Positions 1 through 49,255 of a DNA stretch of 64,000 nt are shown here, piece after piece. Origin of the DNA: Azolla caroliniana (lineage: Eukaryota; Plantae; Polypodiophyta); assembly GCA_043228905.1 (NCBI GenBank), contig JBHGNT010000035.1, positions 1 to 64,000 on the forward strand. The letters run 5' to 3'. Under the pieces are notes generated by a model. The model saw only the letters and a program-made list of their open reading frames with translations. It did no database searches and was not told the origin of the DNA. Position 1 is the stretch's first letter. The number at the start of each line of letters is the position of its first letter. A program made the position numbers and the translations under genes.

Positions 1-3000
1 AACACAGAAATCCGATATCACACGAGCCAGTTATGAACATTTTAATTTACCTACTTGCTCTTGTCAACTCCCACCTCAAATTTGCTAATTTCTTCATGTC
101 GCTCGACCTGAGTTTTAAAATCATGATTTTTTAATTCCATATCATAGCTAGCGTTGTTAGCTTCAATTCGCATGTTTGAATACAGAAAGCCGATATCACA
201 CGAGCCAGATATGAACATTTTAATTTACCTACTTGCTCTTGTCAACTCCCACCTCAAATTTGCTAATTTCTTCATGTCGCTCGACGTGGGTTTCAAAATC
301 TTGACTTTTTATTTCCATATCATAGCAAGCGTTGTTAGCTTCAATTCGCATGTTTGAACACAGAAATCCGATATCACACGAGCCAGATACGAACATTTTA
401 ATTTACCTACTTGCTCTTGTCAACTCCCACCTCCAATTTGCTAATTTCTTCATGTCGCTCGACCTGATTTTTAAAATCTTGATTTTTTAATTCCATATCA
501 TAGCTAGCGTTGTTAGCTTCGATTCGCATGTTTGAACACAAAAATCCGATATCACACGAGCCAGATATGAACATTTTAATTTACCTACTTACTCTTGTCA
601 ACTCCTGCCTCAAATTAATTCCATATCATAGCTAGCGTTGTTAGCCTCAATTCGCATGTTTGAACACAGAAATCCGATATCACACGAGCCAGATATGAAC
701 ATTTTAATTTACCTACTTGCTCTTGTCAACTCCCACCTCAAATTTGCTAGTTTCTTCATGTCTCTCGACGTGGGTTTAAAAATCTTGACTTTTTCATTCC
801 ATATCATAGCAAGCATTGTTAGCTTCAATTCGCATGTTTGAACACAGATATCCGATATCACACGAGCCAGATATGAACATTTTAATTTACCTACTTGCTC
901 TTGTCAACTCCCACCTCAAATTTGCTAATTTCTTCATGTCGCTCGACCTGATTTTTAAAATCTTGATTTTTTAATTCCATATCATAGCTAGCGTTGTTAG
1001 CTTCGATTCGCATGTTTGAACACAAAAATCCGATATCACACGAGCCAGATATGAACATTTTAATATACCTACTTACTCTTGTCAACTCCTGCCTCAAATT
1101 AATTCCATATCATAGCAAGCGTTGTTAGCTTCAATTCGCATGTTTGAACACAGAAATCCGATATCACACGAGCCAGATATGAACATTTTAATTTACCTAC
1201 TTGCTCTTGTCAACTCCCACCTCAAATTTGCTAATTTCTTCATGTCGCTCGACCTGAGTTTTAAAATCTTGATTTTTTAATTCCATATCATAGCTAGCGT
1301 TGTTAGCTTCAATTCGCAAGTTTGAACACAGAAATCCGATATCACACGAGCTAGATATGAACATTTTAATTTACCTACTTGCTCTTGTCAACTCCCACCT
1401 CAAATTTGCTAATTTCTTCATGTCGCTCGACCTGATTTTTAAAATCTTGATTTTTTAATTCCATATCATAGCTAGCGTTGTTAGCTTCGATTCGCATGTT
1501 TGAACACAAAAATCCGATATCACACGAGCCAGATATGAACATTTTAATTTACCTACTTACTCTTGTCAACTCCTGCCTCAAAATTAATTCCATATCATAG
1601 CTAGCGTTGTTAGCTTCAATTCGCATGTTTGAATACAGAAAGCCGATATCACACGAGCCAGATATGAACATTTTAATTTACCTACTTGCTCTTGTCAACT
1701 CCCACCTCAAATTTGCTAATTTCTTCATGTCTCTCGACGTGGGTTTCAAAATCTTGACTTTTTATTTCCATATCATAGCAAGCGTTGTTAGCTTCAATTC
1801 GCATGTTTGAACACAGAAATCCGATATCACACGAGCCAGATATGAACATTTTAATTTACCTACTTGCTCTTGTCAACTCCCACCTCAAATTTGCTAATTT
1901 CTTCATGTCGCTCGACCTGATTTTTAAAATCTTGATTTTTTAATTCCATATCATAGCTAGCGTTGTTAGCTTCAATTCGCATGTTTGAACACAGAAATCC
2001 GATATCACACGAGCCAGATATGAACATTTTAATTTACCTACTTGCTCTTGTCAACTCCCACCTCAAATTTGCTAATTTCTTCATGTCGCTCGACCTGATT
2101 TTTAAAATTTTGATTTTTTAATTCCATATCATAGCTAGCGTTGTTAGCTTCGATTCGCATGTTTGAACACAAAAATCCGATATCACACGAGCCAGATATG
2201 AACATTTTAATTTACCTACTTACTCTTGTCAACTCCTGCCTCAAATTAATTCCATATCATAGCAAGCGTTGTTAGCTTCAATTCGCATGTTTGAACACAG
2301 AAATCTGATATCACACGAGCCAGATATGAACATTTTAATTTACCTACTTGCTCTTGTCAACTCCCACCTCAAATTTGCTAATTTCTTCATGTCGCTCGAC
2401 CTGAGTTTTAAAATCTTGATTTTTTAATTCCATATCATAGCTAGCGTTGTTAGCTTCAATTTGCATGTTTGAACACAGAAATCCGATATCACACGAGCTA
2501 GATATGAACATTTTAATTTACCTACTTGCTCTTGTCAACTCCCACCTCAAATTTGCTAATTTCTTCATGTCGCTCGACCTGATTTTTAAAATCTTGATTT
2601 TTTAATTCCATATCATAGCTAGCGTTGTTAGCTTCGATTCGCATGTTTGAACACAAAAATCCGATATCACACGAGCCAGATATGAACATTTTAATTTACC
2701 TACTTACTCTTGTCAACTCCTGCCTCAAATTAATTCCATATCATAGCTAGCGTTGTTAGCTTCAATTCGCATGTTTGAATACAGAAAGCCGATATCACAC
2801 GAGCCAGATATGAACATTTTAATTTACCTACTTGCTCTTGTCAACTCCCACCTCAAATTTGCTAATTTCTTCATGTCTCTCGACGTGGGTTTCAAAATCT
2901 TGACTTTTTATTTCCATATCATAGCAAGCGTTGTTAGCTTCAATTCGCATGTTTGAACACAGAAATCCGATATCACACGAGCCAGATATGAACATTTTAA

Positions 3001-5280
3001 TTTACCTACTTGCTCTTGTCAACTCCCACCTCCAATTTGCTAATTTCTTCATGTCGCTCGACCTGATTTTTAAAATCTTGATTTTTTAATTCCATATCAT
3101 AGCTAGCGTTGTTAGCTTCGATTCGCATGTTTGAACACAAAAATCCGATATCACACGAGCCAGATATGAACATTTTAATTTACCTACTTACTCTTGTAAA
3201 CTCCTGCCTCAAATTAATTCCATATCATAGCTAGCGTTGTTAGCTTCAATTCGCATGTTTGAACACAGAAATCCGATATCACACGAGCCAGATATGAACA
3301 TTTTAATTTACCTACTTGCTCTTGTCAACTCCCACCTCAAATTTGCTAGTTTCTCCATGTCTCTCGACGTGGGTTTCAAAATCTTGACTTTTTAATTCCA
3401 TATCATAGCTAGCGTTGTTAGCTTCAATTCGCATGTTTGAACACAGAAATCCGATATCACACGAGCCAGATATGAACATTTTAATTTACCTACTTGCTCT
3501 TGTCAACTCCCACCTCAAATTTGCTAATTTCTTCATGTCGCTCGACCTGAGTTTTAAAATCTTGATTTTTTAATTCCATATCATAGCTAGCGTTGTTAGC
3601 TTCAATTTGCATGTTTGAACACAGAAATCCGATATCACACGAGCTAGATATGAACATTTTAATTTACCTACTTGCTCTTGTCAACTCCCACCTCAAATTT
3701 GCTAATTTCTTCATGTCGCTCGACCTGATTTTTAAAATCTTGATTTTTTAATTCCATATCATAGCTAGCGTTGTTAGCTTCGATTCGCATGTTTGAACAC
3801 AAAAATCCGATATCACACGAGCCAGATATGAACATTTTAATTTACCTACTTACTCTTGTCAACTCCTGCCTCAAATTAATTCCATATCATAGCTAGCGTT
3901 GTTAGCTTCAATTCGCATGTTTGAATACAGAAAGCCGATATCACACGAGCCAGATATGAACATTTTAATTTACCTACTTGCTCTTGTCAACTCCCACCTC
4001 AAATTTGCTAATTTCTTCATGTCTCTCGACGTGGGTTTCAAAATCTTGACTTTTTATTTCCATATCATAGCAAGCGTTGTTAGCTTCAATTCGCATGTTT
4101 GAACACAGAAATCCGATATCACACGAGCCAGATATGAACATTTTAATTTACCTACTTGCTCTTGTCAACTCCCACCTCCAATTTGCTAATTTCTTCATGT
4201 CGCTCGACCTGATTTTTAAAATCTTGATTTTTTAATTCCATATCATAGCTAGCGTTGTTAGCTTCGATTCGCATGTTTGAACACAAAAATCCGATATCAC
4301 ACGAGCCAGATATGAACATTTTAATTTACCTACTTACTCTTGTAAACTCCTGCCTCAAATTAATTCCATATCATAGCTAGCGTTGTTAGCTTCAATTCGC
4401 ATGTTTGAACACAGAAATCCGATATCACACGAGCCAGATATGAACATTTTAATTTACCTACTTGCTCTTGTCAACTCCCACCTCAAATTTGCTAGTTTCT
4501 TCATGTCTCTCGACGTGGGTTTCAAAATCTTGACTTTTTAATTCCATATCATAGCAAGCGTTGTTAGCTTCAATTCGCATGTTTGAACACAGATATCCGA
4601 TATCACACGAGCCAGATATGAACATTTTAATTTACCAACTTGCTCTTGTCAACTCCCACCTCAAATTTGCTAATTTCTTCATGTCGCTCGACCTGATTTT
4701 TAAAATCTTGATTTTTTAATTCCATATTATAGCTAGCGTTGTTAGCTTCGATTCGCATGTTTGAACACAAAAATCCGATATCACACGAGCCAGATATGAA
4801 CATTTTAATTTACCTACTTACTCTTGTCAACTCCTGCCTCAAATTAATTCCATATCATAGCTAGCGTTGTTAGCTTCAATTCGCATGTTTGAACACAGAA
4901 ATCCGATATCACACGAGCCAGATATGAACATTTTAATTTACCTACTTGCTCTTGTCAACTCCCACCTCAAATTTGCTAATTTCTTCATGTCGCTCGACCT
5001 GATTTTTAAAATTTTGATTTTTTAATTCCATATCATAGCTAGCGTTGTTAGCTTCGATTCGCACGTTTGAACACAAAAATCCGATATCACACGAGCCAGA
5101 TATGAACATTTTAATTTACCTACTTACTCTTGTCAACTCCTGGCTCAAATTTGCTAATTTCTTCATGTCTCTCGACGTGAGTGTCCAAATCTTGATTTTT
5201 TAATTCCATATCATAGCAAGCGTTGTTAGCTTCAATTCGCATGTTTGAACACAGAAATCCGATTTTACACGAGCCAAATA
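1..5280. repeat. Homogeneous satellite subfamily with 484/662/1146-bp higher-order repeats built from 178-bp and 128-bp monomers
   Basis: Diagnostic GAGCCAGATATG and CTTGCTCTTGTCAACTCCCACC variants. The 50-bp-deleted monomer (CAAATTAATTCC junction) recurs at ~611, 1095, 1580, 2242, 2727, 3211, 3872, 4357 and 4841. Identical spurious ORFs at 1607, 2753 and 3899 are spaced 1146 = 5x178 + 2x128. Confidence 0.9.
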
Positions 5281-8200
5281 TGAACATTTTAATTTACTAA
5301 CGCGTTGTTCTAAACTCCCTCCTCAAATTTGCTAATTTCTTCATGTCTCTCGACCTCCGTTTGAAAATCTTGATTTTTTAATTCCATATCATAGCTAGTT
5401 TTGTTAGTTTCGATTTACTCAAGGGCTCCTCTCAACTCCCTCCTCAAGTTTGCTAATTTCTTCATATCTCTCGACCTGAGTTTCAAAATCTGGAGTTTTT
5501 AAATCCACATCATAGCTAGCGTTGTTTGCTTCGATGCGCATGTTTGATCACAAAAATCCGTTATGACACGAGCCAGGTATGAACATTTTAATTTACCTAC
5601 TAGCTCTTCTCAACTCCCTTCTCAAATTTGGTAATTTCGTCATGTCTCTCGACCTGAGTTTCAAAATCTTGACTTTTTAATTCCATATCATAACTAGCGT
5701 TGTTAGATTCGATTCGCATGTTTGAACACAAAAATCCGATATCACACGAGCCAGGTAGGAACATTTTAATTTACTCAAGGGCTCCTCTCAACTCCCTTCT
5801 CAAGTTTCCTAATTTCGTCATGTCTCTCGACCTGAGTTTCAAAATCTTGATTTTTTAATTCTATATCATAGCTAGCGTTGTTAGCTTCGATTCACATGTT
5901 TGAACACAAAAATCCGATATGACACGAGCCAGGTATGAACATTTTAATTCACGTACTAGCTCTTCTCCACTCACTCCTCAAATTTTGTAATTTCGTCATG
6001 TCTCTCGACCTGAGTTTCAAAATCTTGATTTTTTAATTCCATATCATAGCTAGCGTTGTTGGCTTCGATTCGCATGTTTGAACACAAAAATCCGATATCA
6101 CACGAGCCAGGTAGGAACATTTTAATTTACTAACGCGCTCTTCTCCACTACCTCCAAAAATTTTCTAATTTCCTCATGTCTCTCGAGCGGAGTTTCAAAA
6201 TCTCGATTTTTTAATTCCATATTAGAGCTAGCGTTGTTAGCGTTGTTTGAACACAGAAATCCGATATCACACGAACCAGGTATGAACATTTTAATTTACT
6301 AACGCGCTCTTCTCCACTACCTCCTCAAATTTGCTATTTTCCTCATGTCTGTCGACCTGAGTTTCAAAATCTTGATTTTTTAATTCCATATCATAGTTAG
6401 CGTTGTTAGCTTCAATTTGCATGTTTGAACACAAAAATCCAATATCACAGGAGCTAGGTATGAACATTTTAATTTACTCAAGAGCTCTTCTCAACTCACT
6501 CCTCAAATTTTGTAATTTCGTCATGTCTCTCGACCTGAGTTTCAAAATCTTGATTTTTTAATTCCATATCAGAGCTAGCGTTGTTAGCTTCGATTCGCAT
6601 GTTTGAACACAAAAATCCGATATCACACGAGCCAGGTAGGTACATTTTAATTTACTCAAGGGCTCCTCTCAACTCCCTTCTCAAGTTTCCTAATTTCGTC
6701 ATGTCTCTCGACCTGAGTTTCAAAATCTTGATTTTTTAATTCTATATCATAGCTAGCGTTGTTAGCTTCGATTCACATGTTTGAACACAAAAATCCGATA
6801 TGACACGAGCCAGGTATGAACATTTTAATTCACGTACTAGCTCTTCTCCACTCACTCCTCAAATTTTGTAATTTCGTCATGTCTCTCGACCTGAGTTTCA
6901 AAATCTTGATTTTTTAATTCCATATCATAGCTAGCGTTGTTGGCTTCGATTCGCATGTTTGAACACAAAAATCCGATATCACACGAGCCAGGTAGGAACA
7001 TTTTAATTTACTAACGCGCTCTTCTCCACTACCTCCAAAAATTTTCTAATTTCCTCATGTCTCTCGAGCGGAGTTTCAAAATCTCGATTTTTTAATTCCA
7101 TATTAGAGCTAGCGTTGTTAGCGTTGTTTGAACACAGAAATCCGATATCACACGAACCAGGTATGAACATTTTAATTTACTAACGCGCTCTTCTCCACTA
7201 CCTCCTCAAATTTGCTATTTTCCTCATGTCTGTCGACCTGAGTCTCAAAATCTTGATTTTTGAATTCCGTATCATAGCTAGCGTTGTTAGCTTCGATTCG
7301 CATGTTTGAACACAAAAATCCGATATGACATGAGCCAGGTATGAACATTTTAATTTACCTACTAGCTCTTCTCAACTCACTCCTCAAATTTTGTAATTTC
7401 GTCATGTCTCTCGACCTGAGTTTCAAAATCTTGATTTTTTAATTCCATATCATAGCTAGCGTTGTTGGCTTCGATTCGCATGTTTGAACACAAAAATCCG
7501 ATATCACACGAGCCAGGTAGGAACATTTTAATTTACTAACGCGCTCTTCTCCACTACCTCCAAAAATTTTCTAATTTCCTCATGTCTCTCGAGCGGAGTT
7601 TCAAAATCTCGATTTTTGAATTCCATATTAGAGCTAGCGTTATTAGCTTCGATTCATATGTTTGAACACAGAAATCCGATATCACACGAACCAGGTATGA
7701 ACATTTTAATTTACTAACGCGCTCTTCTCCACTACCTCCTCCAATTTGCTAATTTCTTCATGTCTCTCGACCTGAGTTTCAAAATCTTGATTTTTTAATT
7801 CCATATAAGAGCTAGCGTTGTTAGCTTCGATTCGCATGTTTGAACACAAAAATACGATATCACACGAGCCACGTATGAACATTTTAATTTACCTACTAGC
7901 TCTTCTCAACGCCCTCCTCAAATTTGTTAATTTCTCCATGTCTGTCGACCTGAGTTTCAAAATCTTGATATTTTAATTCTATATCATAGCTAGCGTTGTT
8001 AGCTTCGATTTGCATTATTTAATTTACTCAAGGGCTCCTCTCAACTCCCTCCTCAAGTTTGCTATTATCGTCATGTCGCTCGACCTGAGTTTCAAAATCT
8101 TGATTTTTTAATTCCATATCATAGCTAGCGTTGTTAGCTTCGATTCGCATGTTTGAACACAAAAATCCGATATCACACAAGCCTGGTATGAACATTTTAA

Positions 8201-11200
8201 TTTACCTAGAGGCTCTTGTCAACTCCCTCCTCAAATTTGTTAATTTCTCCATGCCTCTCGACCTGATTTTTTAATATCATATTAGAGCTAGCGTTGTTAC
8301 CTTCGATTCACATGTTTGAACACAGAAATCCGATATCACACGAGCCAGGTATGAACATTTTAATTTACTAACGCGCTCTTCTCCACTACCTCCTAAAATT
8401 TGCTAATTTCTTCATGTCTGTCGAGCTGAGTTTCAAAATCTTGATTTTTTATTTCCATTTTAGAGCTAGCGTTGTTAGCTTCGATTCACATGTTTGAACA
8501 CAGGAATCAGATATCACACGAGCCAGGTACGAACATTTTAATTTACTAACGCGCTCTTCTCCACTACCTCCTCAAATTTGCTAATTTCTTCATGTCTCTC
8601 GACCTGAGTTTCAAAAGCTTCATTTTTTAATTGTAGATCAGAGCTAGCGTTGTTAGCTTCGATTCGCATGTTTCAACACAGGAATCCGATATCACACAAC
8701 CCTGGTATGAACATTTTAATTTACTAACGCGCTCTTCTCCACTACCTCCTAAAATTTTCTAATTTCCTCATGTCTCTCGAGCGGAGTTTCAAAATCTTGA
8801 TTTTTTAATTCCATATCATAGCTAGCGTTGTTAGCTTCGATTCACATGTTTGAACACAAAAATCCGATATGACACGAGCCAGGTATGAACATTTTAATTT
8901 ACGTACTAGCTCTTCTCCACTCACTCCTCAAATTTTGTAATTTCGTCATGTCGCTCGACCTGAGTTTCAAAATCTTGATTTTTTAATTCCGTATCATAGC
9001 TAGCATTGTTAGCTTCGATTCGCATGTTTGAACACAAAAATCCGATATGACACGAGCCAGGTATGAACATTTTAATTTACCTACTAGCTCTTCTCAACTC
9101 ACTCCTCAAATTTTGTAATTTCGTCATGTCTCTCGACCTGAGTTTCAAAATCTTGATTTTTTAATACCATATCATAGCTAGCGTTGTTGGCTTCGATTCG
9201 CATGTTTGAACACAAAAATCCGATATCACACGAGCCAGGTAGGAACATTTTAATTTACTAACGCGCTCTTCTCCACTACCTCCTAAAATTTTCTAATTTC
9301 CTCATGTCTCTCGACCTGAGTTTCAAAATCTTGATTTTTTAATTCCATATTAGAGCTAGCGTTATTAGCTTCGATTCGTATGTTTGAACACAGAAATCCG
9401 ATATCACACGAACCAGGTATGAACATTTTAATTTACTAACGCGCTCTTCTCCACTACCTCCTAAAATTTGCTAATTTCTTCATGTCTCTCGAGTTGAGTT
9501 TCAAAATTTTGATTTTTTAATTCCATATTAGAGGTAGCGTTGTTAGCTTCGATTCACATGTTTGAACACAGGAATCCGATATCACACGAGCCAGGTATGA
9601 ACATTTTAATTTACTAACGCGCTCTTCTCCACTACCTCCTCAAATTTGCTAATTTCTTCATGTCTCTCGACCTGAGTTTCAAAATCTTGATTTTTTAATT
9701 GTAGATCAGAGCTAGCGTTGTTAGCTTCGATTCGCATGTTTCAATACAGGAATCCGATATCACACGAGCCTGGTATGAACATTTTTATTTACTAACGCGC
9801 TCTTCTCCACTACCTCCTAAAATTTGCTAATTTCTTCATGTCTCTCGAGCTGAGTTTCAAAATCTTGATTTTTTAATTCCATATTAGAGGTAGCGTTGTT
9901 AGCTTCGATTCACATGTTTGAACACAGGAATCCGATATCACACGAGCCAGGTATGAACATTTTAATTTACTAACGCGCTCTTCTCTACTACCTCTTCAAA
10001 TTTGTTAATTTCTCCATGTCTGTGGACCTGAGTTTCAAAATCTTGATATTTTAATTCCATATCAGAGCTAGCGCTGTTAGCTTCGATTCACATGTTTGAA
10101 CACAAGAATCCGATATCACACGAGCCAGGTATGAACATTTTAATTTACTCAAGGCCTCCTCTTAACTCCCCTGTCAAGGTTACTAATTTCGTCATGTCTC
10201 TCGACCTGAGTTTCAAAATCTTGATTTTTTAATTCCATATCATAGCTTGCGTTGTTACCTTCCAATCGCATGTTTGAACACATAAATCCGATATGACACG
10301 AGCCAGGTATGAACATTTTAATTTACCTACTAACTCTTCTCAACTCACTCCTCAAATTTAGTAGTTTCGTCATGTCTCTCGACCTGAGTTTCAAAATCTT
10401 GATTTTTTAATTCCATATCATAGCTAGCGTTGTTACCTTCGATTCGCATGTTTGAACACATAAATCCGATATGACACGAGCCAGTTATGAACATTTTAAT
10501 TTACCTACTAGCTCTTCTCAACTCACTCCTCAAATTTCATAATTTCGTCGTGTCTCTCGACCTGAGTGTCAAAATCTTGATTTTTTAATTCCATATCATA
10601 GCTAGCGTTGTTAGATTCGATTCGCATGTTTGAACACAAAAATCCGATATCACACGAGCTAGCTATGAACATTTTAATTTGCGTACTAGCGCTTGTCAAC
10701 TACCTCCTCAAATTTACTAATTTCTTCATGTCTCTCGACCTAAGTTTCAAAATCTTGATATTTTAATTCTATATCATAGCTAGCGTTGTTAGCTTCGATT
10801 TGCATGTTTTAATTTACTCAAGGGCTCCTCTCAACTCCCTCCTCAAGTTTGCTATTATCGTCATGTCGCTCGACCTGAGTTTCAAAATCTTAATTTTTTA
10901 ATTCCATATCATAGCTAGCGTTGTTAGCTTCGATTCGCATGTTTGAACACAAAAATCCGATATCACATGAGCCTGGTATGAACATTTTAATTTACCTAGA
11001 GGCTCTTGTCAACTCCCTCCTCAAATTTGTTAATTTCTCCATGTCTCTCGACCTGAGTTTCAAAATCTTGATTTTTTAATATCATATTAGAGCTAGCGTT
11101 GTTACCTTCGATTCACATGTTTGAACACAGAAATCCGATATCACACGAGCCAGGTATGAACATTTTAATTTACTAACGGGCTCTTCTCCACTACCTCCTA

Positions 11201-14200
11201 AAATTTGGTAATTTCTTCATGTCTCTCGAGCTGTGTTTCAAAATATTGATTTTTTAAGTCCATATCAGAGCTAGCGTTGTTAGCTTCGATTCACATGTTT
11301 TCACACAAAAATACGATATCACACGAGCGACGTATGAACATTTTAATTTACCTAGACGCTCTTGTCAACTCCCTCCTCAAATTTGTTAATTTCTCCTTGT
11401 CGCTCGACCTGAGTTTCAAAATGTTGATTTTTTAATTCCATATTAGAGCTAGCGCTGTTAGCTTCGATTCACATGTTTGAACACAGAAATCCGATATCAC
11501 ACGAGCCAGGTATGAACATTTTAATTTACTAACGGGCTCTTCTCCACTAACTCCTAAAATTTGCTAATTTCTTCATGTCTCTCGAGCTGTGTTTCAAAAT
11601 CTTGATTTTTTAATTCCAAATTAGAGCTAACGTTGTTAGCTTCGATTCGCATGTTTGAACAAAGAAATCCGATATCACACGAGCCTGGTATGAACATTTA
11701 ACTTTACTAACGCGCTCTTCTCCACTACCTCTTCAAATTTGCTAATTTCTTCATGTCTCTCGACCTGAGTTTCAAAATCTTGATTTTTGAATTCCATATT
11801 AGAGCTAGCGTTGTTAGCTTCGATTCCCATGTTTGAACACAGAAATCCGATATCATACGAGCCAGGTATGAACATTTTAATTTACTAACGGGCTCTTCTC
11901 AACTACCTCCTAAAATTTGCTAATTTCTTCATGTCTCTCGAGCTGAATTTGAAAATCTTGATTTTTTAATTCCATATCAGAGCTAGTGCTGTTAGCTTCG
12001 ATTCACATGTTTGAACACAAGAATCCGATATCACACGAGCCAGGTATGAACATTTTAATTTACTCAAGGGCTCCTCTCAACTCCCTTGTCAAGGTTGCTA
12101 ATTTCGTCATGTCTCTCGACCTGAGTTTTAAAATCTTGATTTTTTAATTCCATATCATAGCTAGCGTTGTTACCTTCGATTCGCATATTTGAACACATAC
12201 ATCCGATATGACACGAGCCAGGTATGAACATTTTAATTTACCTACTAGCTCTTCTCAACTCACTCCTCAAATTTAGTAGTTTCGTCATGTCTCTCGACCT
12301 GAGTTTCAAAATCTTGATTTTTTAATTCCATATCATAGCTAGCGTTGTTAGCTTCGATTCGCATGTTTGAACACAAAAATCCGATATCACACGAGCTAGC
12401 TATGAACATTTTAATTTGCGTACTAGCGCTTGTCAACTACCTCCTCAAATTTGCTAATTTCTTCATTTCTCTCGACCTAAGTTTCAAAATCTTGATTTTT
12501 TAATTCAATATCAGCGCTAGCGTTGTTATCTTCGATTTGCATGTTTTAATTTACTCAAGGGCTCCTCTCAACTCCCTCCTCAAGTTTGCTATTTTCGTCA
12601 TGTCTCTCGACCTGAGTTTCAAAATCTTGATTTTTGAATTCCATATCAGTGCTAACGTTGTTAGCTTCGATTCGCATGTTTGAACACAAAAATCTGATAT
12701 CACACGAGCCACGTATGAACATTTTAATTTACTAACGCGCTCTTCTCCACTACCTCCTCAAATTTGCTAATTTCTTGATGTCCTTCGACCTGAATTTGAA
12801 AATCTTGATTTTTTAAATCCATATTAGAGCTAGCGCTGTTAGCTTCGATTCACATGTTTGAACACAAGAATCCGATATCACACGAGCCAGGTATGAACAT
12901 TTTAATTTACTCAAGGGCTCCTCTCAACTCCCTTGTCAAGGTTGCTAATTTCGTCATATCTCTCGACCTGTGTTTCAAAATCTTGATTTTTTAATTCCAT
13001 ATCATAGGTAGCGTTGTTACCTTCGATTCGCATGTTTGAACAAATAAATCCGATATGACACGAGCCAGGTATGAACATTTTAATTTACCTACTAGCTCTT
13101 CTCAACTCACTCCTCAAATTTGGTAATTTCGTCATGTCTCTCGACCTGAGTTTCAAAATCTTGATTTTTTAATTCCATATCATAGCTAGCGTTGTTAGCT
13201 TCGATTCGCATGTTTGAACACAAAAATCCGATATCACACGAGCTAGCTATGAACATTTTAATTTGCGTACTAGCGCTTGTCAACTACCTCCTCAAATTTG
13301 CTAATTTCTTCATTTCTCTCGACCTAAGTTTCAAAATCTTGATTTTTTAATTCAATATCAGCGCTAGCGTTGTTATCTTCGATTTGCATGTTTTAATTTA
13401 CTCAAGGGCTCCTCTCAACTCCCTCCTCAAGTTTGCTATTTTCGTCATGTCTCTCGACCTGAGTTTCAAAATCTTGATTTCTGAATTCCATATCAGTGCT
13501 AACGTTGTTAGCTTCGATTCGCATGTTTGAACACAAAAATCTGATATCACACGAGCCACGTATGAACATTTTAATTTACTAACGCGCTCTTCTCCACTAC
13601 CTCCTCAAATTTGCTAATTTCTTGATGTCCTTCGACCTGAATTTGAAAATCTTGATTTTTTAAATCCATATTAGAGCTAGCGCTGTTAGCTTCGATTCAC
13701 ATGTTTGAACACAAGAATCCGATATCACACGAGCCAGGTATGAACATTTTAATTTACTCAAGGGCTCCTCTGAACTCCCTTGTCAAGGTTGCTAATTTCG
13801 TCATATCTCTCGACCTGTGTTTCAAAATCTTGATTTTTTAATTCCATATCATAGGTAGCGTTGTTACCTTCGATTCGCATGTTTGAACAAATAAATCCGA
13901 TATGACACGAGCCAGGTATGAACATTTTAATTTACCTACTAGCTCTTCTCAACTCACTCCTCAAATTTGGTAATTTCGTCATGTCTCTCGACCTGAGTTT
14001 CAAAATCTTGATTTTTTAATTCCATATCATAGCTAGCGTTGTTAGCTTCGATTCGCATGTTTGAACACAAAAATCCGATATCACACGAGCTAGCTATGAA
14101 CATTTTAATTTGCGTACTAGCGCTTGTCAACTACCTCCTCAAATTTGCTAATTTCTTCATGTCTCTCGACCTAAGTTTCAAAATCTTGATTTTTTAATTC

Positions 14201-16780
14201 AATATCAGCGCTAGCGTGGTGAGCTTCGATTCGCATGTTTGAACACAAAAATCCGATATCACACGAGCCAGGTATAAACATTTTAATTTACCTACTAGCG
14301 CTTGTGAACTCCCTCCTAAAATGTGCTAATTTCTTCATGTCTCTCGACCTGAGTTTCAAAATCTTGATTTTTTAATTCCATATTAGAGCTAGCGTTGTTA
14401 GCTTCGATTCACATGTTTGAACACGAAAATCCGATATCATACGAGCCAGGTACGAATATTTTAATTTACTCAAGGGCTCCTCTCAACTCCCTCCTCAAGT
14501 TTGCTAATTTCGTCATGCCTCTGGACCTGAGTTTCAAAATCTTGATTTTTTAATTCCATATCATAGCTTGCGTTGTTAGCTTCGATTCGCATGTTTGAAC
14601 ACAAAAATCCGATATCACACGAGCCTGGTATGAACATTTTAATTTACCTAGAGGCTCTTGTCAACTCCCTCCTCAAATTTGTTAATTTCTCCATGCCTCT
14701 CGACCTGAGTTTCAAAATCTTGATTTTTTAATATCATATTAGAGCTAGCGTTGTTACCTTCGATTCACATGTTTGAACACAGAAATCCGATATCACACGA
14801 GCCAGGTATGAACATTTTAATTTACTCAAGGGCTCCTCTCAACTCCCTCCTCAAGTTTCCTAATTTCGTCATGTCGCTCGACCTGAGTTTCAAAATCTTG
14901 ATTTTTTAATTCCATATCATAGCTAGCGTTGTTAGCTTCGATTCGCATGTTTGAACACAAAAATCCGATATGACACGAGCCAGGTATGAACATTTTAATT
15001 TACCTAATAGCTCTTCTCAACTCACTCCTCATATTTTGTAATTTCGTCATGTCTCTCGACCTGAGTTTCAAAATCTTGATTTTTTAATTCCATATCATAG
15101 CTAGCGTTGTTAGCTTCGATTCGCATGTTTGAACACAAAAATCCGATATCACACGAGCCAGGTAGGAACATTTTAATTTACTCAAGGGCTCCTCTCAACT
15201 CCCTCCTCAAGTTTGCTATTTTCGTCATGTCTCTCGACTTGAGTTTCAGAATCTTGAGTTTTTAAATCCACATCATAGCTAACGTTGTTAGCTTTGATTC
15301 GCATGTTTGAACACAAAAGTCCGATATCACACGAGCCAGGTATGAACATTTTAATTTACCTCCTAGCTCTTCTCAACTCCATCCTCAAATCTGGTAATTT
15401 CGTCATGTCTCTCGACCTAAGTTTCAAAATCTTGATATTTTAATTCCATATCATAGCTAGCGTTGTTAGCTTCGATTTGCATGTTTGAACACAAAAATCC
15501 GATATCACACGAGCCAGGTATGAACATTTTAATTTACTCAAGGGCTCCTCTCAACTCCCTTGTCAAGGTTGCTAATTTCGTCATGTCTCTCGACCTGAGT
15601 TTTAAAATCTTGATTTTTTAATTCCATATCATAGCTAGCGTTGTTACCTTCGATACGCATGTTTGAACACATAAATCCGATATGACACGAGCCAGGTATG
15701 AACATTTTAATTTACGTACTAGTTCTTCTCAACTCACTCCTCAAATTTGGTAATTTCGTCATGTCTCTCGACCTGAGTTTCAAAATCTTGATTTTTTAAT
15801 TCCATATTATAGCTAGCGTTGTTAGCTTCGATTTGCATGTTTGAACACAAAAATCCGATATCACACGAGCCAGGTATGAACATTTAAATTTACTCAAGGG
15901 CTCCTCTCAACTCCCTTGTCAAGGTTGCTAATTTCGTCATGTCTCTCGACCTGAGTTTCAAAATCTTGATTTTTTAATTCTATATCATAGCTAGCGTTGT
16001 TAGATTCGATTCGCATGTTTGAACACAAAAATCCGATATCACACGAGCCAAGTAGGAACATTTAAATTTACACAATATCATAGCTAGCGTTGTTAGCTTC
16101 GATTCGCATGTTTGAACACAAAAATCCGATATGACACGAGCCAGGTATGAACATTTTAATTTACGTACTAGTTCTTCTCCACTCACTCCTCAAATTTGGT
16201 AATTTCGTCATGTCTCTCGACCTGAGTTTCAAAATCTTGATTTTTTAATTCCATATTATAGCTAGCGTTGTTAGCTTCGATTTGCATGTTTGAACACAAA
16301 AATCCGATATCACACGAGCCAGGTATGAACATTTAAATTTACTCAAGGGCTCCTCTCAACTCCCTTGTCAAGGTTGCTAATTTCGTCATGTCTCTCGACC
16401 TGAGTTTCAAAATCTTGATTTTTTAATTCCATATCATAGCTAGCGTTGTTACCTTCGATTCGCATGTTTGAACACATAAATCCGATATGACACGAGCCAG
16501 TTATGAACATTTTAATTTACCTACTAGCTCTTCTCAACTCACTCCTCAAATTTCATAATTTCGTCGTGTCTCTCGACCTGAGTGTCAAAATCTTGATTTT
16601 TTAATTCCATATCATAGCTAGCGTTGTTAGATTCGATTCGCATGTTTGAACACAAAAATCCGATATCACACGAGCCAGGTAGGAACATTTTAATTTACTC
16701 AAGGGCTCCTCTCAACTCCCTCCTCAAGTTTGCTATTTTCGTCATGTCGCTCGACTTGAGTTTCAAAATCTTGATTTTTT
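1..16780. repeat. 178-bp tandem satellite array, left block (probable centromeric/pericentromeric satellite)
   Basis: The AA of the TGTTTGAA landmark falls at 1, 179, 357 and 535 (period 178). Head-to-tail, one orientation, with occasional deleted monomers. Centromeric role is inferred from monomer size and HOR organisation only. Confidence 0.97.
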
Positions 16781-16789
16781 CATATTAAT

Positions 16790-17295
16790 AGACTATATAA
16801 TGTCTTATACGAGGAGTGCGGGCAGGATACTTCTTTGGCTGTGATTAGTGTTATTTGGTTAACTATTTGAGGATTTAGGGTTTGGGTGTGAAGGTTTGGG
16901 GTATATGGGTTAACTGAGGTTTTTGGGTTAAATATCTTAAGGGTTTAGGGTTTTGTTCGGAGGGTTTAGGGCATATGGGTAAAATATCTGAGGGTTTAGG
17001 GTTTGGTAGACTATATGATGTATTGCACGAGGAAAGCGGGCACGATACTTATTTAGGCTACGACTAGTGTTATTAGGTTAACTATTCTTAGGGTTTATGG
17101 GTTTGTTCTGAGGGTTTAGGGTATATGGGTTAAAATATTCTGAGGGTTTAGGGTAGTGTGTGCAAAAGTAAAGGTATTAAGGATTGGTAGGTTTAGGGTT
17201 TTTGTGGTAAGGGGAGATATGTTTGGAGAGGTATGATGATGAGGGTATGGGTTGGCGGGGATATAATGTGTTAGGGTTATTAGTTTAGGGTTGCG
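16790..17295 (-). repeat. PLE 3'-terminal region: two diverged ~218-bp direct repeats with interspersed TTTAGGG telomere-like motifs
   Basis: AGACTATAT..ACGAGGA..GCGGGCA.GATACTT..TAGTGTTATT.GGTTAACTATT starts at 16790 and 17008. AGGGTTTAGGG at 16940, 16961, 16991, 17111 and 17143, with further TTTAGGG near 16874, 17192 and 17284. Confidence 0.85.
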
Positions 17296-17455
17296 GGTAT
17301 TGGGTAGGTTAAAGATTAAGGGAAAGAGGGGGGAGTGCCACGTTTTACTTAGTGGGAATGAAATAGCATATATATTATTGAAAGCACAACTAACCACAAC
17401 ATAAAAACAATAGACACTTGAGAAGAAAATATATATTGATCAAATATATATTAAT

Positions 17456-17514
17456 ATGACCTATGTAGCAAACTAGTTTCGCTCATATATGGAGCTCATC
17501 AGTGCTTAGGTCAT
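17456..17514 (-). ncRNA. Minimal type I hammerhead ribozyme
   Basis: Minus strand reads AUGACCUA-AGCA-CUGAUGA-GCUC-CAUAUAU-GAGC-GAAA-C-UA-G-UU-UGCU-ACA-UAGGUCAU. Both core boxes present; stem II GCUC/GAGC; stem I AGCA/UGCU plus AUGACCUA/UAGGUCAU; very short stem III within the palindrome AAACUAGUUU. Predicted cleavage after GUU, between 17471 and 17470. Confidence 0.9.
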
Positions 17515-17857
17515 TTTCGAGTACAAAGGTAAGTTTATATAGGTTTGTGGTAAGGGGGGTGTAAGATGAGTGGTGGACAAGAGTGATAAATGTGAAAAGA
17601 AGTGAGGAGTATGGGAGGGAGTGGTGTAACACGGTGATAAGGGGGCAAGATATGATTTTGTAAAGGGAGGGAGTGGGTATCATGAGTTTGATAGAGATAA
17701 GTGGGTAACTAGAGGGTATAATAATGGTGATAAGTGGGTGACCGGAGGGTATGATAAGTGAGGGGAGGGGTGTGTATATGTGTGTGATGGTGGCTAGTAC
17801 GAGGTAAAGATGTGGGTGAAAAACGAGGGGAATACGAATTTAATAGTTATGGGGAAT

Positions 17858-17860
<3 letters not shown>

Positions 17861-17901
<41 letters not shown>

Positions 17902-18240
17902 TTAACTAATGAGAAGAGAGTGTGAAAAAAGGTGAGAAAAGAGAGAGGGAGAGAGAGAGAGAGAGAGAGAAAAGAAAAAAAGAAAGAAAGAAAGAAGAGA
18001 GACGTAGAGAAAAGAAAAGGTAGAGAGGGAGAAAAAAGGAAAAGAAAAAAGAGGTGAGTTTTAGAGTGTAGAGAGGGAGAAAAGTAAAGGTAGAGAGAGA
18101 GGAAAAAGAAATGATTTAGAGAGGGAGAAAGGTAAAGGTAGAGAGAGAAAGAGAAGGGGAGGGAAGGAGGAGATAGAGATAGAGAAAGGGAAAGTTAAGA
18201 GAGAAGAAATGTGAAGGTAGAGAGGGAGAAGATAGGGGGA
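17861..18240. repeat. (GA)19 microsatellite and polypurine tract (polypyrimidine on the PLE sense strand) in the PLE 3' UTR
   Basis: Perfect GA run at 17861-17898, a second run near 17950-17970, then almost pure A/G sequence to ~18240. Confidence 0.9.
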
Positions 18241-18307
18241 GATCCTCACGTGGTAAATATAGGGAGATAAAACTTGTGGTTTAAAAAAATAAAAATATGG
18301 AGAGGAC

Positions 18308-20285
18308 TTAGTGTGGATCTATAGTAATGTTTTTTGTGTTGACTAGTGAAGAGTGTAGATTTTTAGATTTAGTCCAACAAATTATTGGTTTGGGGATGTG
18401 TTGTAGTAGAGGGTCTTCTTGGAGGTTTAAGTGTAGGCTAGTAAGGGTTTCTTTTATTCCTAGATTAGGGGCTTGGTGTGTGAATTTTAGTTTAAAGATT
18501 ATGGGTGTCGGGGTTTGGTTAATGGTTTTGTTTGAGAGGAGAGTTGGTCTAAGGGAATAGGGGTGTTTTTTTAATATATTGAGGATAAAGTGTGTAGGGT
18601 ATCCTCGTGCTCGTAGTCTCTTAAAAAATAGTTGTTGCATTTTTAAATAACCTTGGGTTGTACTTTCTCTAATAATGTATCTTTTAAGTTCGTTCGAGAG
18701 GAAGCTTTTTTTGACGTGGATAGGATGTGTCGAGGTGAAGGGTATGTATTGGTAAGTATTAAGTTCTTTTTGAAAACAATTAAAGTTGAAATTATTATTA
18801 GCGAGGTTTATCCAAAGGTCGAGAAAAGGAAGTTTAGTGAGAGAGGTTTGGATGGTCAGTTTAATGGAGTTTTGAGTGGTAATACTATAGAAATTTAGGT
18901 AGTCTAAGAGTTGTGTTTTCGTACCGCTCCATACACCAAAGGCATCATCAATATATCTCGTGAAATAAAATAAATGGGGAGATGGGTTGGAATTCTCGAG
19001 GTATGACAAAAAAAGGCAAGCATATACTACGGAAAAATTGCTTCCCATGGCCGTGCCTTTAATTTGTTGATAGATTTGGTTATTAAATTTAAGGAAGTGA
19101 TATTCTAAGGTTAAGGCGCTGAGAGTATAGATGAGGTTGGCTTTTTGTTTTGAGAAATGGGGGGTAATTAGGTGTTTTAGGGCAAGTAGTCCTAGTTTTG
19201 GTGGAATACTCGGGTAGAGGGATTCTACGTCAAATGAAAAGATGAAGCTATTGGGTGGTGTGGTAAGGTTTTCTAGGGATTGTACTAAGGAGAATGAGTC
19301 TCTAAGGTATTGTTTTTGTTGTAGGAGTATGGGGAGGAGTTGGTGGTGTAGCCACTTAGAAGTTTGTTCAAATAACGAACCGTTGTAAGAACAAATAGGC
19401 CTATAGCCAATGGGTTCTTTGTGTACTTTGGGTAGGAAGTACATGGTGGGGACTCGGTATTCGTTGGATGGTTTGTGTAAGATGAATTTTATTTCTATGA
19501 GGGAGAGGGTTCCTAGGTGTTGATTCATTAATGTTTTTAATCTATGTAGGAGTTCTTCTAAGGGGAAGGTATCTACGGGTTTGTAAGTGGATGTATCGGA
19601 TAGGTGAGCTAGGGCTTTATCTAGGTATGTTTGTTTGTTTAAGACACAAACACCTACATTTTTGTCTGCGGGGAGGATGATAATGTGTTTATTGCTTTTA
19701 AGGCTTTTTAAGGCTTGTAGTAGGTGTAGTGGAATGTGTTTAGTGGGTAGGTTTGTATTATGGAGTTTTATGGTGAGGAGATTAAGGTGTTTATGAAGTA
19801 TGTCTTCTAACGGTGGGTATTGTGTAGGGGGGTTCCAAGAGGGGTTGGGTAGTTTAAAGGGGTTGTGTGGGGCGGAGGAGTCGTCTTGAAAGAAATGTCT
19901 AAGTCTAAGGGATCTACTAAGGTTATGGAATTCTTGAAGAATAGAAGTGGAGGTGGGGGGGGGGGGAGGGAGGTATAAACTTAAGACCTAGGTTAAGGAG
20001 TTTAATTTCTGACTTGCTAAGGGTATGTGTAGAAAGGTTGTGGATTTTACTACTATGAGGGGGACTAAAGGGTGTTGTAAGGGGTTTCCAAAATTTATAT
20101 CTAAGTTTCTTTTTACGTGTTTTTTTTGTATGTGGTCTAAAGGGGATTCTATGTGACATGTTACCTAGCCAATTAGAGGAATCTAGGGGGGTAGAGTTAC
20201 CATTAACAAAATACCACATACGTTTAGTTGGGTGTACGGCGTGTCTAAAACGTCGGTTTGATCTTTTAGCACGCCGTACTAAACG
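18308..20285 (-). CDS. PLE reverse transcriptase (ORF2, ~660 aa if repaired), broken by a 1-nt frameshift in a G12 run at 19955-19966
   Basis: The supplied 406-aa ORF frame stays open upstream of Met 19528 up to the G run (..TSTSILQEFHNLSRSLRLRHFF..ALKSLKSNKHIIILPADKNVGVCVLNKQTYLDKALAHLSDTSTY..). The 98-aa ORF 19923-20219 supplies the PLE N-terminal motif and its frame is open back past 20285. Removing one G joins the two. Confidence 0.85.
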
Positions 20286-20291
20286 TTTTTT
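20234..20291 (-). promoter_or_regulatory. Putative programmed -1 ribosomal frameshift signal, ORF1 to RT
   Basis: ORF1 ends CCA AAA AAC GTT TAG, giving heptamer A_AAA_AAC (20291-20285) in the correct phase. A 5-nt spacer precedes a hairpin GUACGGCGUG-CUAAAA / UUUUAG-A-CACGCCGUAC (20279-20234). The -1 frame is the RT N-terminal frame. Confidence 0.8.
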
Positions 20292-21429
20292 GGCCGGTGG
20301 AGGTTGTGAGTGGTGGGAAGTGTGATGTGAGAAGAATACATAGGGGATTTAGGGTGACTAGTTGAGGGGTGGATACAACTTGTGGATGGTTTGGTAGAGG
20401 TGGTGTAGGGAGGATGTTGGGTATGGGTTGATTGGGTGTAGTGGTTAGGGATGTAGGGGTTAAGAGAGGTGTATGAGGGGTTGGGGAAGGCTAAGGGTAT
20501 TTGGGAAAATAGGGGAGGGTTTATGTTGTGATTGTGGGTAGTTTCTTTAAACCAAGGGGGGCTTAGTGTGTGTGAATAGTTGTGAGAGGGGGGGGTAGGA
20601 AAGGTATTTCTAGAATTATTAGGAGGAGTATAAAAAGAAAACGAAAGAGAAGGAGAGTTAGGGGTAGGGTGAGCGTTAGGATTTACACAGTGGGTATGGG
20701 TAGGAGGGTAAGGATGAGTACTGTTTTGGGGTTGAAGGTCTTCGGGGGAGGGATACAAGGGGGGAGCGATGAAGCTGAATGGGGTGTGTTGGGGCTGGTG
20801 GTGAATCTGATGATAGGTATCTCGCGAATGGTGGAGTGGTGTGTCCTCCTCAAGTGGTGGCTGGAGCTGATAATTGGTGGTGGTTATGTTATGAATTGCC
20901 GTCTCGTATGTTGTCCGAGAGGGAGGTTGATGTTGGAGAGGGTGAGAAAACGGCGGGGGTCGAGGCGTCGGCAGAAGAGGCTGCTGTAATTTGCAGGGCT
21001 GGTCGCATGGTGGCAGCGGCGACGGCGGTGGCGGCGGCGGCTGCGGCTGAAGATCATTGTTGGGTTGGCGTTGATTTATATGTTGATGTCGATGCTGATA
21101 TGAGTGCATTTGGTGTTCTCTTTCCGTCATATATCTCCAGGGCTCGTGGTGTTGCGGTTGCGGAGGCGGCGGCTGAAAACCATTGTTAGGTTGGCCTCGG
21201 TTTTGATGCCGGTAAAGGTATACTTGTTGTTTGTTTTCAGGAGGAAATGGAGAGGAGAAGCTATGGATAGTGTTTGCTTTGGGCTGAAATGGGGCGGAAG
21301 GTATATGGCGGAGTTGCATTCGTTGGAGAAGTACGGGTTCGTTGAAACCAATAAATTTAACTATTGGTTCGTATTGATTGGAATCTAAATTATGGCGCGG
21401 GGTAATTTCGTGTGTTGTTATGTTATAAG
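20279..21429 (-). CDS. PLE ORF1, Pro/Gln/His/Thr-rich low-complexity protein, 5'-truncated
   Basis: Open frame of ~383 codons inside the insert. The first ~15 codons of the supplied 398-aa ORF (21430-21475) are satellite sequence, so the true start is missing. It ends exactly at the frameshift signal. Confidence 0.7.
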
Positions 21430-24400
21430 TGTTTGAACACAAAAATCCGATATCACACGAGCCAGGTATGAACATTTTAATTTACCTACTAGATCTTCTC
21501 AACTCCCTCCTCGAATTTGGTAATTTCGTCATGTCTCTTGACCTGAGTTTCAAAATCTTGATTTTTTAATTCCATATCATAACTAGCATTGTTAGCTTCG
21601 ATTCGCATGTTTGAACACAAAAATCCGATATCACACGAGCCAGGTATGAACATTTTAATTTACTCAAGGGCTCCTCTCAACTCCCTGGTCAAGGTTGCTA
21701 ATTTCGTCATGTCTCTCGACCTGAGTTTCAAAATCTTGATTTTTTAATTCCATATCATAGCTAGCGTTGTTACCTTCGATTCGCATGTTTGAACACATAA
21801 ATCCAATATGACACAAGCCAGGTATGAACATTTTAATTTACCTACTAGCTCTTCTCAACTCACTCCTCAAATTTAGTAATTTCGTCATGTCTCTCGACCT
21901 GAGTTTCAAAATCTTGACTTTTTAATTCCATATCATAGCTAGCGTTGTTAGATTCGATTCGCATGTTTGAACACAAAAATCCGATATCACACGAGCCAGG
22001 TAGGAACATTTTAATTTACTCAACAGCTCCTCTCAACTCCCTCCTCAAGTTTGCTATTTTCGTCATGTTTCTCGACCTGAGTTTCAAAATCTTGATTTTT
22101 TAATTCCATATCATAGGTAGCGTTGTTAGCTTCGATTCGCATGTTTGAACACAAAAATCCGATATCACACGAGCCAGGTAGGAACATTTTAATTTACTCA
22201 AGGGCTGCTCTCAACTCCCTCCTCAAGTTTGCTATTTTCGTCATGTCTCTCGACCTGAGTTTCAAAATCTTGATTTTTTAATTCCATATCATAGCTAGCG
22301 TTGTTAGCTTCGATTCGCATGTTTGAACACAAAAATCCGATATCACACGAGCCAGGTATGGACATTTTAATTTACTCAAAGGCTCCTCTCAACTCCCTCC
22401 TCAAGTTTGCTAATTTCTTCATATGTCTCGACCTGAGTTTCAAAATCTTGATTTTTCAATTCCATATCATAGCTAGCGTTGTTAGCTTCGATTCGCATGT
22501 ATGAACACAAAAATCCGATATCATACGAGCCAGGTACGAACATTTTAATTTACTCAAGGGCTCCTCTCAACTCCCTCCTCAAGTTTGCTAATTTCGTCAT
22601 GCCTCTCGACCTGAGTTTCAAAATTTTTATTTTTTAATTCCATATCATAGCTTGCGTTGTTAGCTTCGATTCGCATGTCTGAACACAAAAATCCGATATC
22701 ACACGAGCCAGGCATGAACATTTTAATTTACCTACTAGCTCTTCTCAACTCCCTCCTCGGATTTCGTAATTTCGTCATGTCTCTCGACCTGAATTTCAAA
22801 ATCTTGATTTTTTAATTCCATATCAAAACTAGCGTTGTTAGCTTCGATTCGCATGTTTCAACACAAAAATCCGATATCACACGAGCCAGGTATGAACATT
22901 TTAATTTACTCACGGTCTCCTCTCAACTCCCTCCTCAAGTTTGCTAATTTCTTCATATCTCTCGACTTAAGTTTCAAAATCTTGAGTTTTTAAATCCACA
23001 TCATAGCTAGCGTTGTTAGGTTTGGTTCGCATATTTGAACACAAAAATCCTATATCACACTCGCCAGGTATGAACATTTTAATTTACCTACTAGCTCTTC
23101 TCAACTCACTCCTCAATTTGGTAATTTCGTCATGTCTCTCGACCTGAGTTTCAAAATCTTGATTTTTTAACTCCATATCATAGCTAGCGTTGTTAGATTC
23201 GATTCGCATGTTTGAACACAAAAATCCGATATCACACGAGCCAGGTATGAACATTTTAATTTACCTACTAGCTCTTCTCAACTCACTCCTCGAATTTAGT
23301 AATTTCGTCATGTCTCTCGACCTGAGTTTCAAAATCTTGATTTTTTAATTCCATATCAAAACTAGCGTTGTTAGCTTCGATTCGCATGTTTGAACACATA
23401 AATCCGATATCAGACGAGCTAGGTATGAACATTTTAATTTACTCAAGGGCTCCTCTCAACTCCCTCCTCAAGTTTGCTAATTTCTTCATATCTCTCGACC
23501 TGAGTTTAAAATCTTGAGTTTTTAAATCCACATCATAGCTAGCGTTGTTAGCTTCGATTCGCATATTTGAACACAAAAATCCGATATCACACTCGCCAGG
23601 TATGAATATTTTAATTTACCTACTAGCTCTTCTCAACTCACTCCTCAAATTTGGTAATTTCGTCATGTCTCTCGACCTGAGTTTCAAAATCTTGATTTTT
23701 TAACTCCATATCATTGCTAGCGTTTGTAGATTCGATTCACATGTTTGAACACAAAAATCCGATATCACACGAGCCAGGTAGGAACATTTTAATTTACTCT
23801 AGGGGTCCTCACAACTCCCTCTTCAAGTTTGCTAATTTCGTCATGTCTCTCGATGTGAGTTTCAAAATCTTGATTTTTTAATTCCATATCGTAGCTAGCG
23901 TTGTTAGATTCGATTCGCATGTTTGAACACAAAAATCCGATTTCACACGAGCCAAGTATGGACATTTTAGTTTACTCAAGGGCTCCTCTCAACTCCCTCC
24001 TCAAGTTTGTTAATTTCTTCATATCTCTCGACATGAGTTTCAAAATCTTGAGTTTTTAAATCCACATCATAGCTAGCGTTCTTAGCTTCGATTCGCATGT
24101 TTGAATACAAAAATCCGATATCACACTCGCCAGGTATGAACATTTAAATTTACCTACCTACTCTTCTCAACTCCCTCCTCAAATTTGGTAATTTCGTCAT
24201 ATCTCTCGACCTAAGTTTGAAAATCTTGATTTTTTAATTCCTTATTATAGCTAGCGTTGTTAGCTTCGATTCGAATGTTTGAACACATAAATCCGATCTG
24301 ACACTCGCCAGGTATGAACATTTAAATTTACCTATTAGCTCTTCTCAACTCACTCCTCAAATTTGGTAATCTCCTCATGTCTCTCGACCTGAGTTTCAAA

Positions 24401-48799: not shown

Positions 48800-49255
48800 T
48801 GTCAGGAACGCTACCTAGGCGGAGAAGGAATTAGTACTAAAAGAAGGATTAGTACAATTGTTGAGAACAGTACTAAGACAGAGAAGGATTAGTACTATGA
48901 GAGGTGTAGAACGTTGAGAGAAGGAACGAGTGAGAGGGAGAGAGAGAGAGAGAGAGAGAGAATGATGATACGAAGGATATATGTATTAGGTGAAGGAAAA
49001 TATACAATAACAGCTAGAAGGCTTAAGACTGGCGTTGAACCGATTTGGTTCGAACTAATGCCTTGCGCCTCCTTTTATAGTGTCTTCAGGAATACTCCTG
49101 AAGTTTCTAGAATGTTCCAGAGAAATCTGGAATATACATCCATTTCCTAATAAAATATAAATGAAAATAATATACTTCGAATTACAATGTATAATATAAC
49201 GGTAAAGACTCGACCCATGTAACAACAGGTTATGGGTTCGAGTCTAGTTATGACA
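48800..49255 (-). repeat. 3' LTR
   Basis: Direct repeat of 54111-54566, adjacent to the PPT. Contains a (GA)n tract and three short GAAGGA(A)TTAGTAC repeats. Confidence 0.97.

Follow-up and report, generated by a model that had tools for sequence, protein, structure and literature searches.

We detected a conserved signal at the junction between ORF1 and the reverse transcriptase (RT) of an endonuclease-less (EN-minus) Penelope-like element (PLE) in the Azolla caroliniana genome, and we place at roughly 0.85 the probability that programmed −1 ribosomal frameshifting joins ORF1 to the RT, the shift itself being something we infer. This is the best reading of the junction because both heptamer and hairpin are conserved, because constraint on the RT frame starts right after the heptamer, and because several lineages offer no AUG before the RT N-terminal motif. 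The signal is real and conserved, and it is probably functional.

The element and its copy in the window

The window, by which we mean the whole 64,000-nucleotide stretch that was analysed, contains one 5'-truncated copy of the element, embedded in a satellite array that continues on both of its flanks (Table 1). A tandem array elsewhere yields a full monomer of 6124 bp, with an ORF1 of 881 codons (in L085) and an ORF2 of 679 codons, both counted stop to stop. ORF2 of this family (family A) encodes a PLE-type RT in which the N-terminal motif, the DKN-type motif, and the RT core are all present, with a match to RVT_1 (E 8.4e-06) that lies under the curated cut-off. Motif and Pfam checks found no GIY-YIG endonuclease motif in the family A RT, a weak search found no longer fused relative with GIY-YIG among its three matches, and no protease, RNase H, integrase, or accessory ORF was seen in the 6-kb element. 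The closest named RT relatives are proteins of Cryptomeria, Selaginella, and Ginkgo, at 37–42% identity. With its PLE-type RT and no GIY-YIG, the element is an endonuclease-less PLE. RuBisCO small-subunit genes in the genome show the host to be a plant, and the first-pass annotation of this DNA had likewise taken the element for a plant PLE.

Table 1. Features of the 64,000-nucleotide window around and beyond the PLE copy.
Feature	Positions	Strand	Remarks
Family A EN-minus PLE copy, 5'-truncated	16782..21432	−	98.7% match to monomer positions 1473–6124
ORF1, 3' part with Pro/His/Asn-rich tail	20279..21432	−	start and conserved helical domain missing in this copy
Slippery heptamer A_AAA_AAC	20285..20291	−	in ORF1 phase (X_XXY_YYZ register), three codons before stop
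5-nt spacer	20280..20284	−	overlaps ORF1 stop TAG (20281–20279)
Predicted stimulatory hairpin	20234..20279	−	10+6 bp; loop of 13 nt; a single bulged base
−1 frame, start of ORF2	19923..20348	−	basic patch and RT N-terminal motif; early end in this copy
C run	19955..19966	−	one base more than most copies have; RT frame broken here
RT core, thumb, C-terminus	18308..19987	−	RVT_1 E 4.8e-06, under curated cut-off; no GIY-YIG
Hammerhead-ribozyme-like motif, 3' UTR	17458..17514	−	CUGAUGA...GAAA core; fold z −3.63
3' tail, degenerate CCCTAAA telomere-like repeats	16782..17330	−	from sequence
178-bp satellite array	1–16781 and 21433–64000		higher-order variants of 128/306/484 and 135/313/491 bp
LTR retrotransposon	48928–54272	−	between two (GA)17 runs

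The copy in the window is itself defective and unable to make an ORF1–RT fusion. Its 5' end leaves it short of the first ~490 ORF1 codons, and its RT core lies in another frame than the −1 frame because the C run is one base longer, an extra C shared with the near-identical copy L001. It had been proposed that the −1 frame reads straight into the PLE RT N-terminal motif; the peptides quoted for that proposal are indeed read and the motif is reached, but the frame stops at 19923 and the core follows in a different one. Intact copies exist elsewhere in the genome, and the RT frame is unbroken in 7 of 15 copies with a full junction. The hammerhead-like motif in the 3' UTR is a candidate ribozyme; among nine loci searched, Rfam HH9 was found in the relatives L121 and L061 only, with scores under the gathering threshold.

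The satellite surrounding the copy is possibly centromeric. The LTR retrotransposon farther along the window, which by its motifs appears to be of Ty3/gypsy type, has a gag-like ORF (54112–52823) that overlaps a 1200-aa pol ORF (52850–49248) in the −1 frame, and G_UUA_AAC stands in gag phase directly ahead of its gag stop.

Conservation of the heptamer and frame offset

On the minus strand of the window, ORF1 ends in CCA AAA AAC GTT TAG, and both the heptamer in ORF1 phase and the spacer, stem, and loop described from the letters alone were found as claimed. The hairpin has a predicted stability of −26.1 kcal/mol (z −7.35), which none of 200 shuffles equalled. Families A–E all carry A_AAA_AAC three codons before the ORF1 stop, and in families B–E a stop closes the −1 frame 1–8 codons upstream. 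A census of distinct junction sites, in which ten genomic loci were retrieved by a heptamer-containing pattern and the copies, being related, are not independent trials, gave A_AAA_AAC at 75/81 genomic and 41/44 metagenome junctions; divided by coding state, the heptamer was present at 79/81 junctions with an RT open for at least 595 codons versus 37/44 where the RT frame is interrupted or cut. A degenerate pattern of 24 nt for the junction matched 92 places, and its reversed control none. Other copies thus keep the heptamer with their ORFs in different frames, as the frameshift proposal had predicted, rather than reading through in one frame or lacking the heptamer. In family F, ORF1 is in frame with the RT at one of the 11 genomic junctions listed, via two 1-nt deletions that were not seen in the four other family-F copies compared.

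In an RT tree of 52 rows, which left out loci without a junction and carried no telomerase or LINE outgroup, a clade with 100/100 support unites, in 23 rows, all of this genome's families with the Selaginella, Ginkgo, and Cryptomeria proteins. The RTs of this land-plant clade are 38–85% identical, and 15 of its 16 DNA-backed rows have A_AAA_AAC or G_GGA_AAC in register; the exception is L148, a broken copy, and its relatives in the genome do carry the heptamer. Most lineages have the six-A run, while L157 has G_GGA_AAC and the distant L179 and L180 have U_UUA_AAC. Outside the clade we compared 19 loci at 26–33% identity: a canonical heptamer lies in the overlap of ten (one of them a fragment), four are one long ORF, and five have no heptamer or are cut. 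The four single-ORF contigs, and three contigs that show no heptamer (L184, L185, and L189), count against the frameshift reading. Within RT bodies, canonical heptamers take up 0–1.3% of in-register positions.

At the protein level the range reaches further. The tripeptide Lys/Gly-Asn-Gly, which is the ORF1-frame reading of the heptamers plus GG, occurs in 13 of the tails of 24 distant ORF1 proteins, among them a stand-alone 605-aa Cryptomeria ORF1; the shuffles averaged 3.1 (0/5000), with a shuffle that ignores a possible favouring of the Asn-Gly dipeptide. At the position of the L157 heptamer, a Selaginella gene model has Pro-Gly-Lys-Arg, in a segment whose score of E 6.1 makes it a mere lead. 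Two lineages have doubled sites: in family F (L163–L166) ORF1 and the −1 frame overlap for 150–170 codons beyond the heptamer, and the hairpin loop holds a second heptamer, and L157 has two G_GGA_AAC sites with a predicted hairpin after each.

Conservation of the hairpin

Across 17 aligned junctions, 83% of cells pair against 25–49% in slid controls, and both-sided changes occur in 8 of 16 stem pairs, with no more than 1/500 shuffles reaching any of the measures under a control that takes no account of relatedness. The first-pass annotation had named compensatory stem changes as a check on its proposal, and two-sided changes are present in other copies. The 10+6-bp stem form is that of family A; in a consensus fold across families nothing beyond a core of 6 bp survives (covariation term −0.08), and three basal stem pairs fail in about half of the sequences. 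The hairpin also has the lowest synonymous divergence (pS 0.54) of 40 intervals compared.

Of 18 downstream intervals folded, 11 have z ≤ −2.4 and seven, including L156 and L170 of the plant clade, are no more stable than shuffles. When the downstream fold was ranked against body positions in 18 lineages, which were chosen for having a heptamer, it came within the top 2% for strength in 13. Rows of the land-plant clade often have unrelated hairpins 5–9 nt after the heptamer. In families F, L165, L159, and L182 the hairpin sequence differs and the spacing is kept. A simple search of ten sequences for a pseudoknot found no conserved pairing of the loop with downstream sequence, and what pairing there was came to 4–6 bp at differing places.

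Probable translation of the −1 frame and competing explanations

Coding constraint in the −1 frame holds from the heptamer onward. Codons 20–38, which lie between the hairpin and the first AUG, show pN 0.22 versus pS 0.73, similar to the RT N-terminal motif, with pS near enough to saturation that such ratios are rough. Homology in the −1 frame begins at the heptamer in nine lineages that are 24–55% identical in that region, and invariant His, Trp, and Gly residues stand ahead of any AUG in the −1 frame of these lineages. The first Met falls at codon 257–517, past the RT N-terminal motif, in L121–125, L157, L159–160, and L163–166. The late first Met and the constraint ahead of AUG therefore indicate that the RT needs upstream entry without an AUG.

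Entry of this kind could also come from splicing, if an intron that contains the heptamer joined ORF1 to the RT frame and the ORF1 stop TAG were its 3' splice site. Such an intron would likewise account for the coding constraint past the hairpin, and in most close families the heptamer is followed by a TAG, a potential acceptor; conserved introns in PLEs are described in the Fig. 1 legend of PMC8557442, and public gene models of Ginkgo, Cryptomeria, and Selaginella (predictions, at the protein level only) place ORF1-like and RT-like parts in one protein. However, TAA replaces TAG in the open-RT genomic copies L094 and L095 and in family I, and no AG is found there in F, L165, L170, L182, and L183, yet heptamer and spacing are kept. 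An A run also occupies the place where, from general knowledge, a pyrimidine tract would be expected, and we consider an intron very unlikely. Contigs from three runs presumed to be RNA cover parts of ORF1 and of a relative's RT and leave the junction uncovered. On the strand antisense to ORF1 at L005 (2997–3096, + strand), one contig from run X1 lacks a 98-nt stretch that is bounded by GT..AG when read antisense, a gap present in none of the genomic copies compared; this single contig, presumed to be RNA, is possibly a spliced antisense transcript.

Less probable again is that ribosomes re-initiate or initiate internally at an AUG near codon 40, or that the RT has an mRNA of its own, with the hairpin aiding termination or initiation. 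Nine of the 11 close sequences have a Met at codon 39 that would suit such a start, non-AUG codons could also serve as one, and coupling of stop and restart is the presumed route for TART (PMC5009743). But the AUG is missing at that column in family A, in L121–125, and in L142, and none precedes the RT N-terminal motif in F, L157, L159, and L165. The codons upstream of the AUG are moreover under purifying selection and conserved down to 24% identity.

Slippage of RNA polymerase on the A6 run, which would add a base and bring the RT into frame in some transcripts, is compatible with the six-A run of most lineages, but G_GGA_AAC in L157 and U_UUA_AAC in L179 and L180 fit tRNA re-pairing rather than a homopolymer, and the hairpins stand at ribosome-like spacing, which makes this mechanism highly implausible. 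Scarcely credible at all is that a single-ORF element was split when its A-rich Lys/Arg block mutated, and that copying spread the change: Lys/Arg blocks are mutation-prone in Naiad PLEs (PMC8557442) and the window copy does show an accident of this sort at its C run, but lineages with as little as 38% RT identity, and young intact copies, keep the same offset and heptamer, which largely refutes it.

Ribosomal frameshifting remains the preferred reading, and under it the hairpin would make ribosomes pause while tRNA-Lys and tRNA-Asn occupy AAA AAC. Most would stop three codons on and release an ORF1 protein of ~880 aa, with its long-helix domain and disordered tail, while a minority would slip back one base and continue into an ORF1–RT fusion computed at ~1,535 aa for family A. 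ORF1 would then be the main product and the fusion the minor one, in proportions that we infer, and, no protease having been found, the fusion would remain uncut.

We suggest, tentatively and with the balance somewhat against it, that −1 frameshifting is the ancestral and general mode of RT expression in two-ORF EN-minus PLEs, spanning the lycophyte-to-conifer clade and lineages that are 27–33% identical. If this were true, many annotations of such PLEs as "single-ORF" or intron-joined would be wrong, and an ORF1–RT fusion would let an EN-minus element reach more than 100 interstitial and satellite sites.

The ORF1 protein

ORF1 has a conserved domain of ~200 aa with predicted long helices (pLDDT 86), followed by a variable tail rich in Asn, Pro, and His. 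The domain matched no Pfam family above cut-off, no gag or zinc knuckle, and no PDB structure by Foldseek at E ≤ 0.001; atlas matches at 0.90 were to unnamed clusters only, and an RT profile searched against PDB by sequence also gave no match. The gag-pol likeness that had been drawn for this element holds for the control arrangement, but not for the proteins: ORF1 is a long-helix protein with no gag match in Pfam or by fold, and no protease was matched. ORF1 would probably serve as an RNA-packaging scaffold. In families A, B, and L121, ORF1 includes long Asn-Pro repeats that are encoded by CCCTAA/AACCCT telomere-like repeats.

An ORF1 profile matched 60 proteins, none longer than 770 aa and two with RT-like parts. 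One homolog of the domain (P0176) is from the alga Closterium, which suggests that the lineage may be older than land plants. Distant PLE-like RTs in L190, L191, L193, and L196 form one clade of single ORFs of 1094–2328 aa, in which the ORF1 domain profile has no match.

Copies in the genome and in metagenomes

A DNA search of the genome found 17 loci at 94–100% identity and a second group near 73%, and RT searches added further genomic families at 83%, 73–76%, and 49% identity along with 76 metagenome loci. A search of viral contigs gave no relative. The 144 scored RT matches are spread along chromosome-scale contigs and in satellite contigs. EN-minus PLEs are generally confined to chromosome ends, according to PMC8557442, and the plant element does not share this restriction.

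Copies of family A (L081–L098, and the window copy at 16782) have a precise 3' end and variably truncated 5' ends, and in most of them a few bases resembling the ORF1 start follow the 3' end and overlap an AAAAT-rich target. These ends suggest that priming may occur by microhomology at breaks. The 5' junctions of L082, L097, and L093 carry CCCTAAA, and reverse-complement telomere repeats are present at the 3' side as the degenerate CCCTAAA tail. L082, L093, L097, and L098 are interstitial 5' truncations capped by CCCTAAA repeats, as described for Terminons; at L098, telomere repeats in the opposite orientation adjoin the 3' end. At L081 (G000:C15:10305000-10314900), ~390 bp of flank is duplicated on both sides of the insertion at 96.9%, a very long target duplication that is absent in L083 and L088 and ambiguous in satellite copies. 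Head-to-tail tandem arrays were seen at L091–L092, L099–L100, L104, L109, and L114, some of them apparently mixing PLE families. A family-F copy at L103 (G000:C261:20700-29700) lies in a tandem array of tRNA-Glu(TTC) genes, eight in 9 kb; we rejected tRNA targeting by this family, with a tRNA array at only 1 of 40 loci scanned.

Comparison with known systems

EN-minus PLEs are the sister group of telomerase RT, and the clade-wide signal points to how these telomerase-related RTs are likely expressed, namely as a large ORF1–RT fusion at a low ratio. It also explains why gene predictors split plant PLEs or join them by introns. As a 60-nt cassette with natural variants, the signal is assayable in plant extracts, and the family, which is young, intact, and interstitial though EN-minus, is a tractable system for endonuclease-independent retrotransposition. 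Recoding is familiar from retroviruses and LTR elements but, to our knowledge, poorly documented in elements of non-LTR type.

Compared with retroviral and Ty3/gypsy gag-pol, the plant element has the same X_XXY_YYZ site of the most shift-prone class, a short spacer, a 3' structure, and the polymerase in the −1 frame, but it is non-LTR, its ORF1 matches no gag or zinc knuckle, and no protease, RNase H, or integrase was found in it. The animal PLE in which a frameshift is combined with a pseudoknot is presumably of the bdelloid Athena/Terminon type, which the first-pass annotation had cited as precedent. The precedent as such is on record, the Fig. 1 legend of PMC8557442 describing animal PLEs in which a frameshift with a pseudoknot may set ORF1 apart. 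The plant element resembles these animal PLEs in having no endonuclease, a separate long-helix ORF1, and a probable frameshift before the RT. Like Terminons, whose structure is given in PMC6431247, it has tandem arrays, some 5' truncations capped by telomere repeats and, close to its 3' end, telomere-like repeats and a hammerhead-like motif. It differs in its plant host, its hairpin, which is predicted to be a simple one, its size of 6 kb, and its copies, which are chromosome-wide and in satellites rather than mainly terminal.

Coprina elements of fungi, a diatom, and Selaginella (Sm1/Sm2) are likewise EN-minus, with a DKN-type motif and no insertion in the fingers; the closest named RTs include Selaginella, and a Selaginella RT falls inside the plant clade. 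According to PMC13159263, Coprina typically has one ORF and Athena two, Selaginella has Coprina, and one fungal Coprina has two ORFs, the first of them with a coil domain. By description, the typical Coprina is thus single-ORF and telomeric, with no frameshift mechanism given in that text, unlike the plant element. PLE-X, the EN-minus, Chlamys-related group of Selaginella and Chara, is also a plant and EN-minus group, and its canonical hammerhead (reported for Selaginella PLEs in PMC4209133) may have a counterpart in the hammerhead-like core of our element. In contrast to PLE-X and Chlamys, six RTs checked have no CxC motif, no insertion in the fingers was seen, the spacing between motifs A and B in the plant clade is 58–62 aa, as in canonical PLEs, and there is no sign of 28S rDNA targeting.

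The portion of PMC5009743 that reviews shift-prone heptamers leaves Penelope unmentioned, and the available parts of PMC5408684 and two bioRxiv preprints contain nothing on frameshifting in plant PLEs. No report of it turned up in the literature searched, and an earlier mention for Selaginella or Coprina is possible in primary Athena/PLE papers. Set against these systems, a −1 signal of the hairpin type in an EN-minus PLE clade of land plants is probably new for plants, frameshifting being known in animal PLEs, and hints of it extend to more distant lineages.
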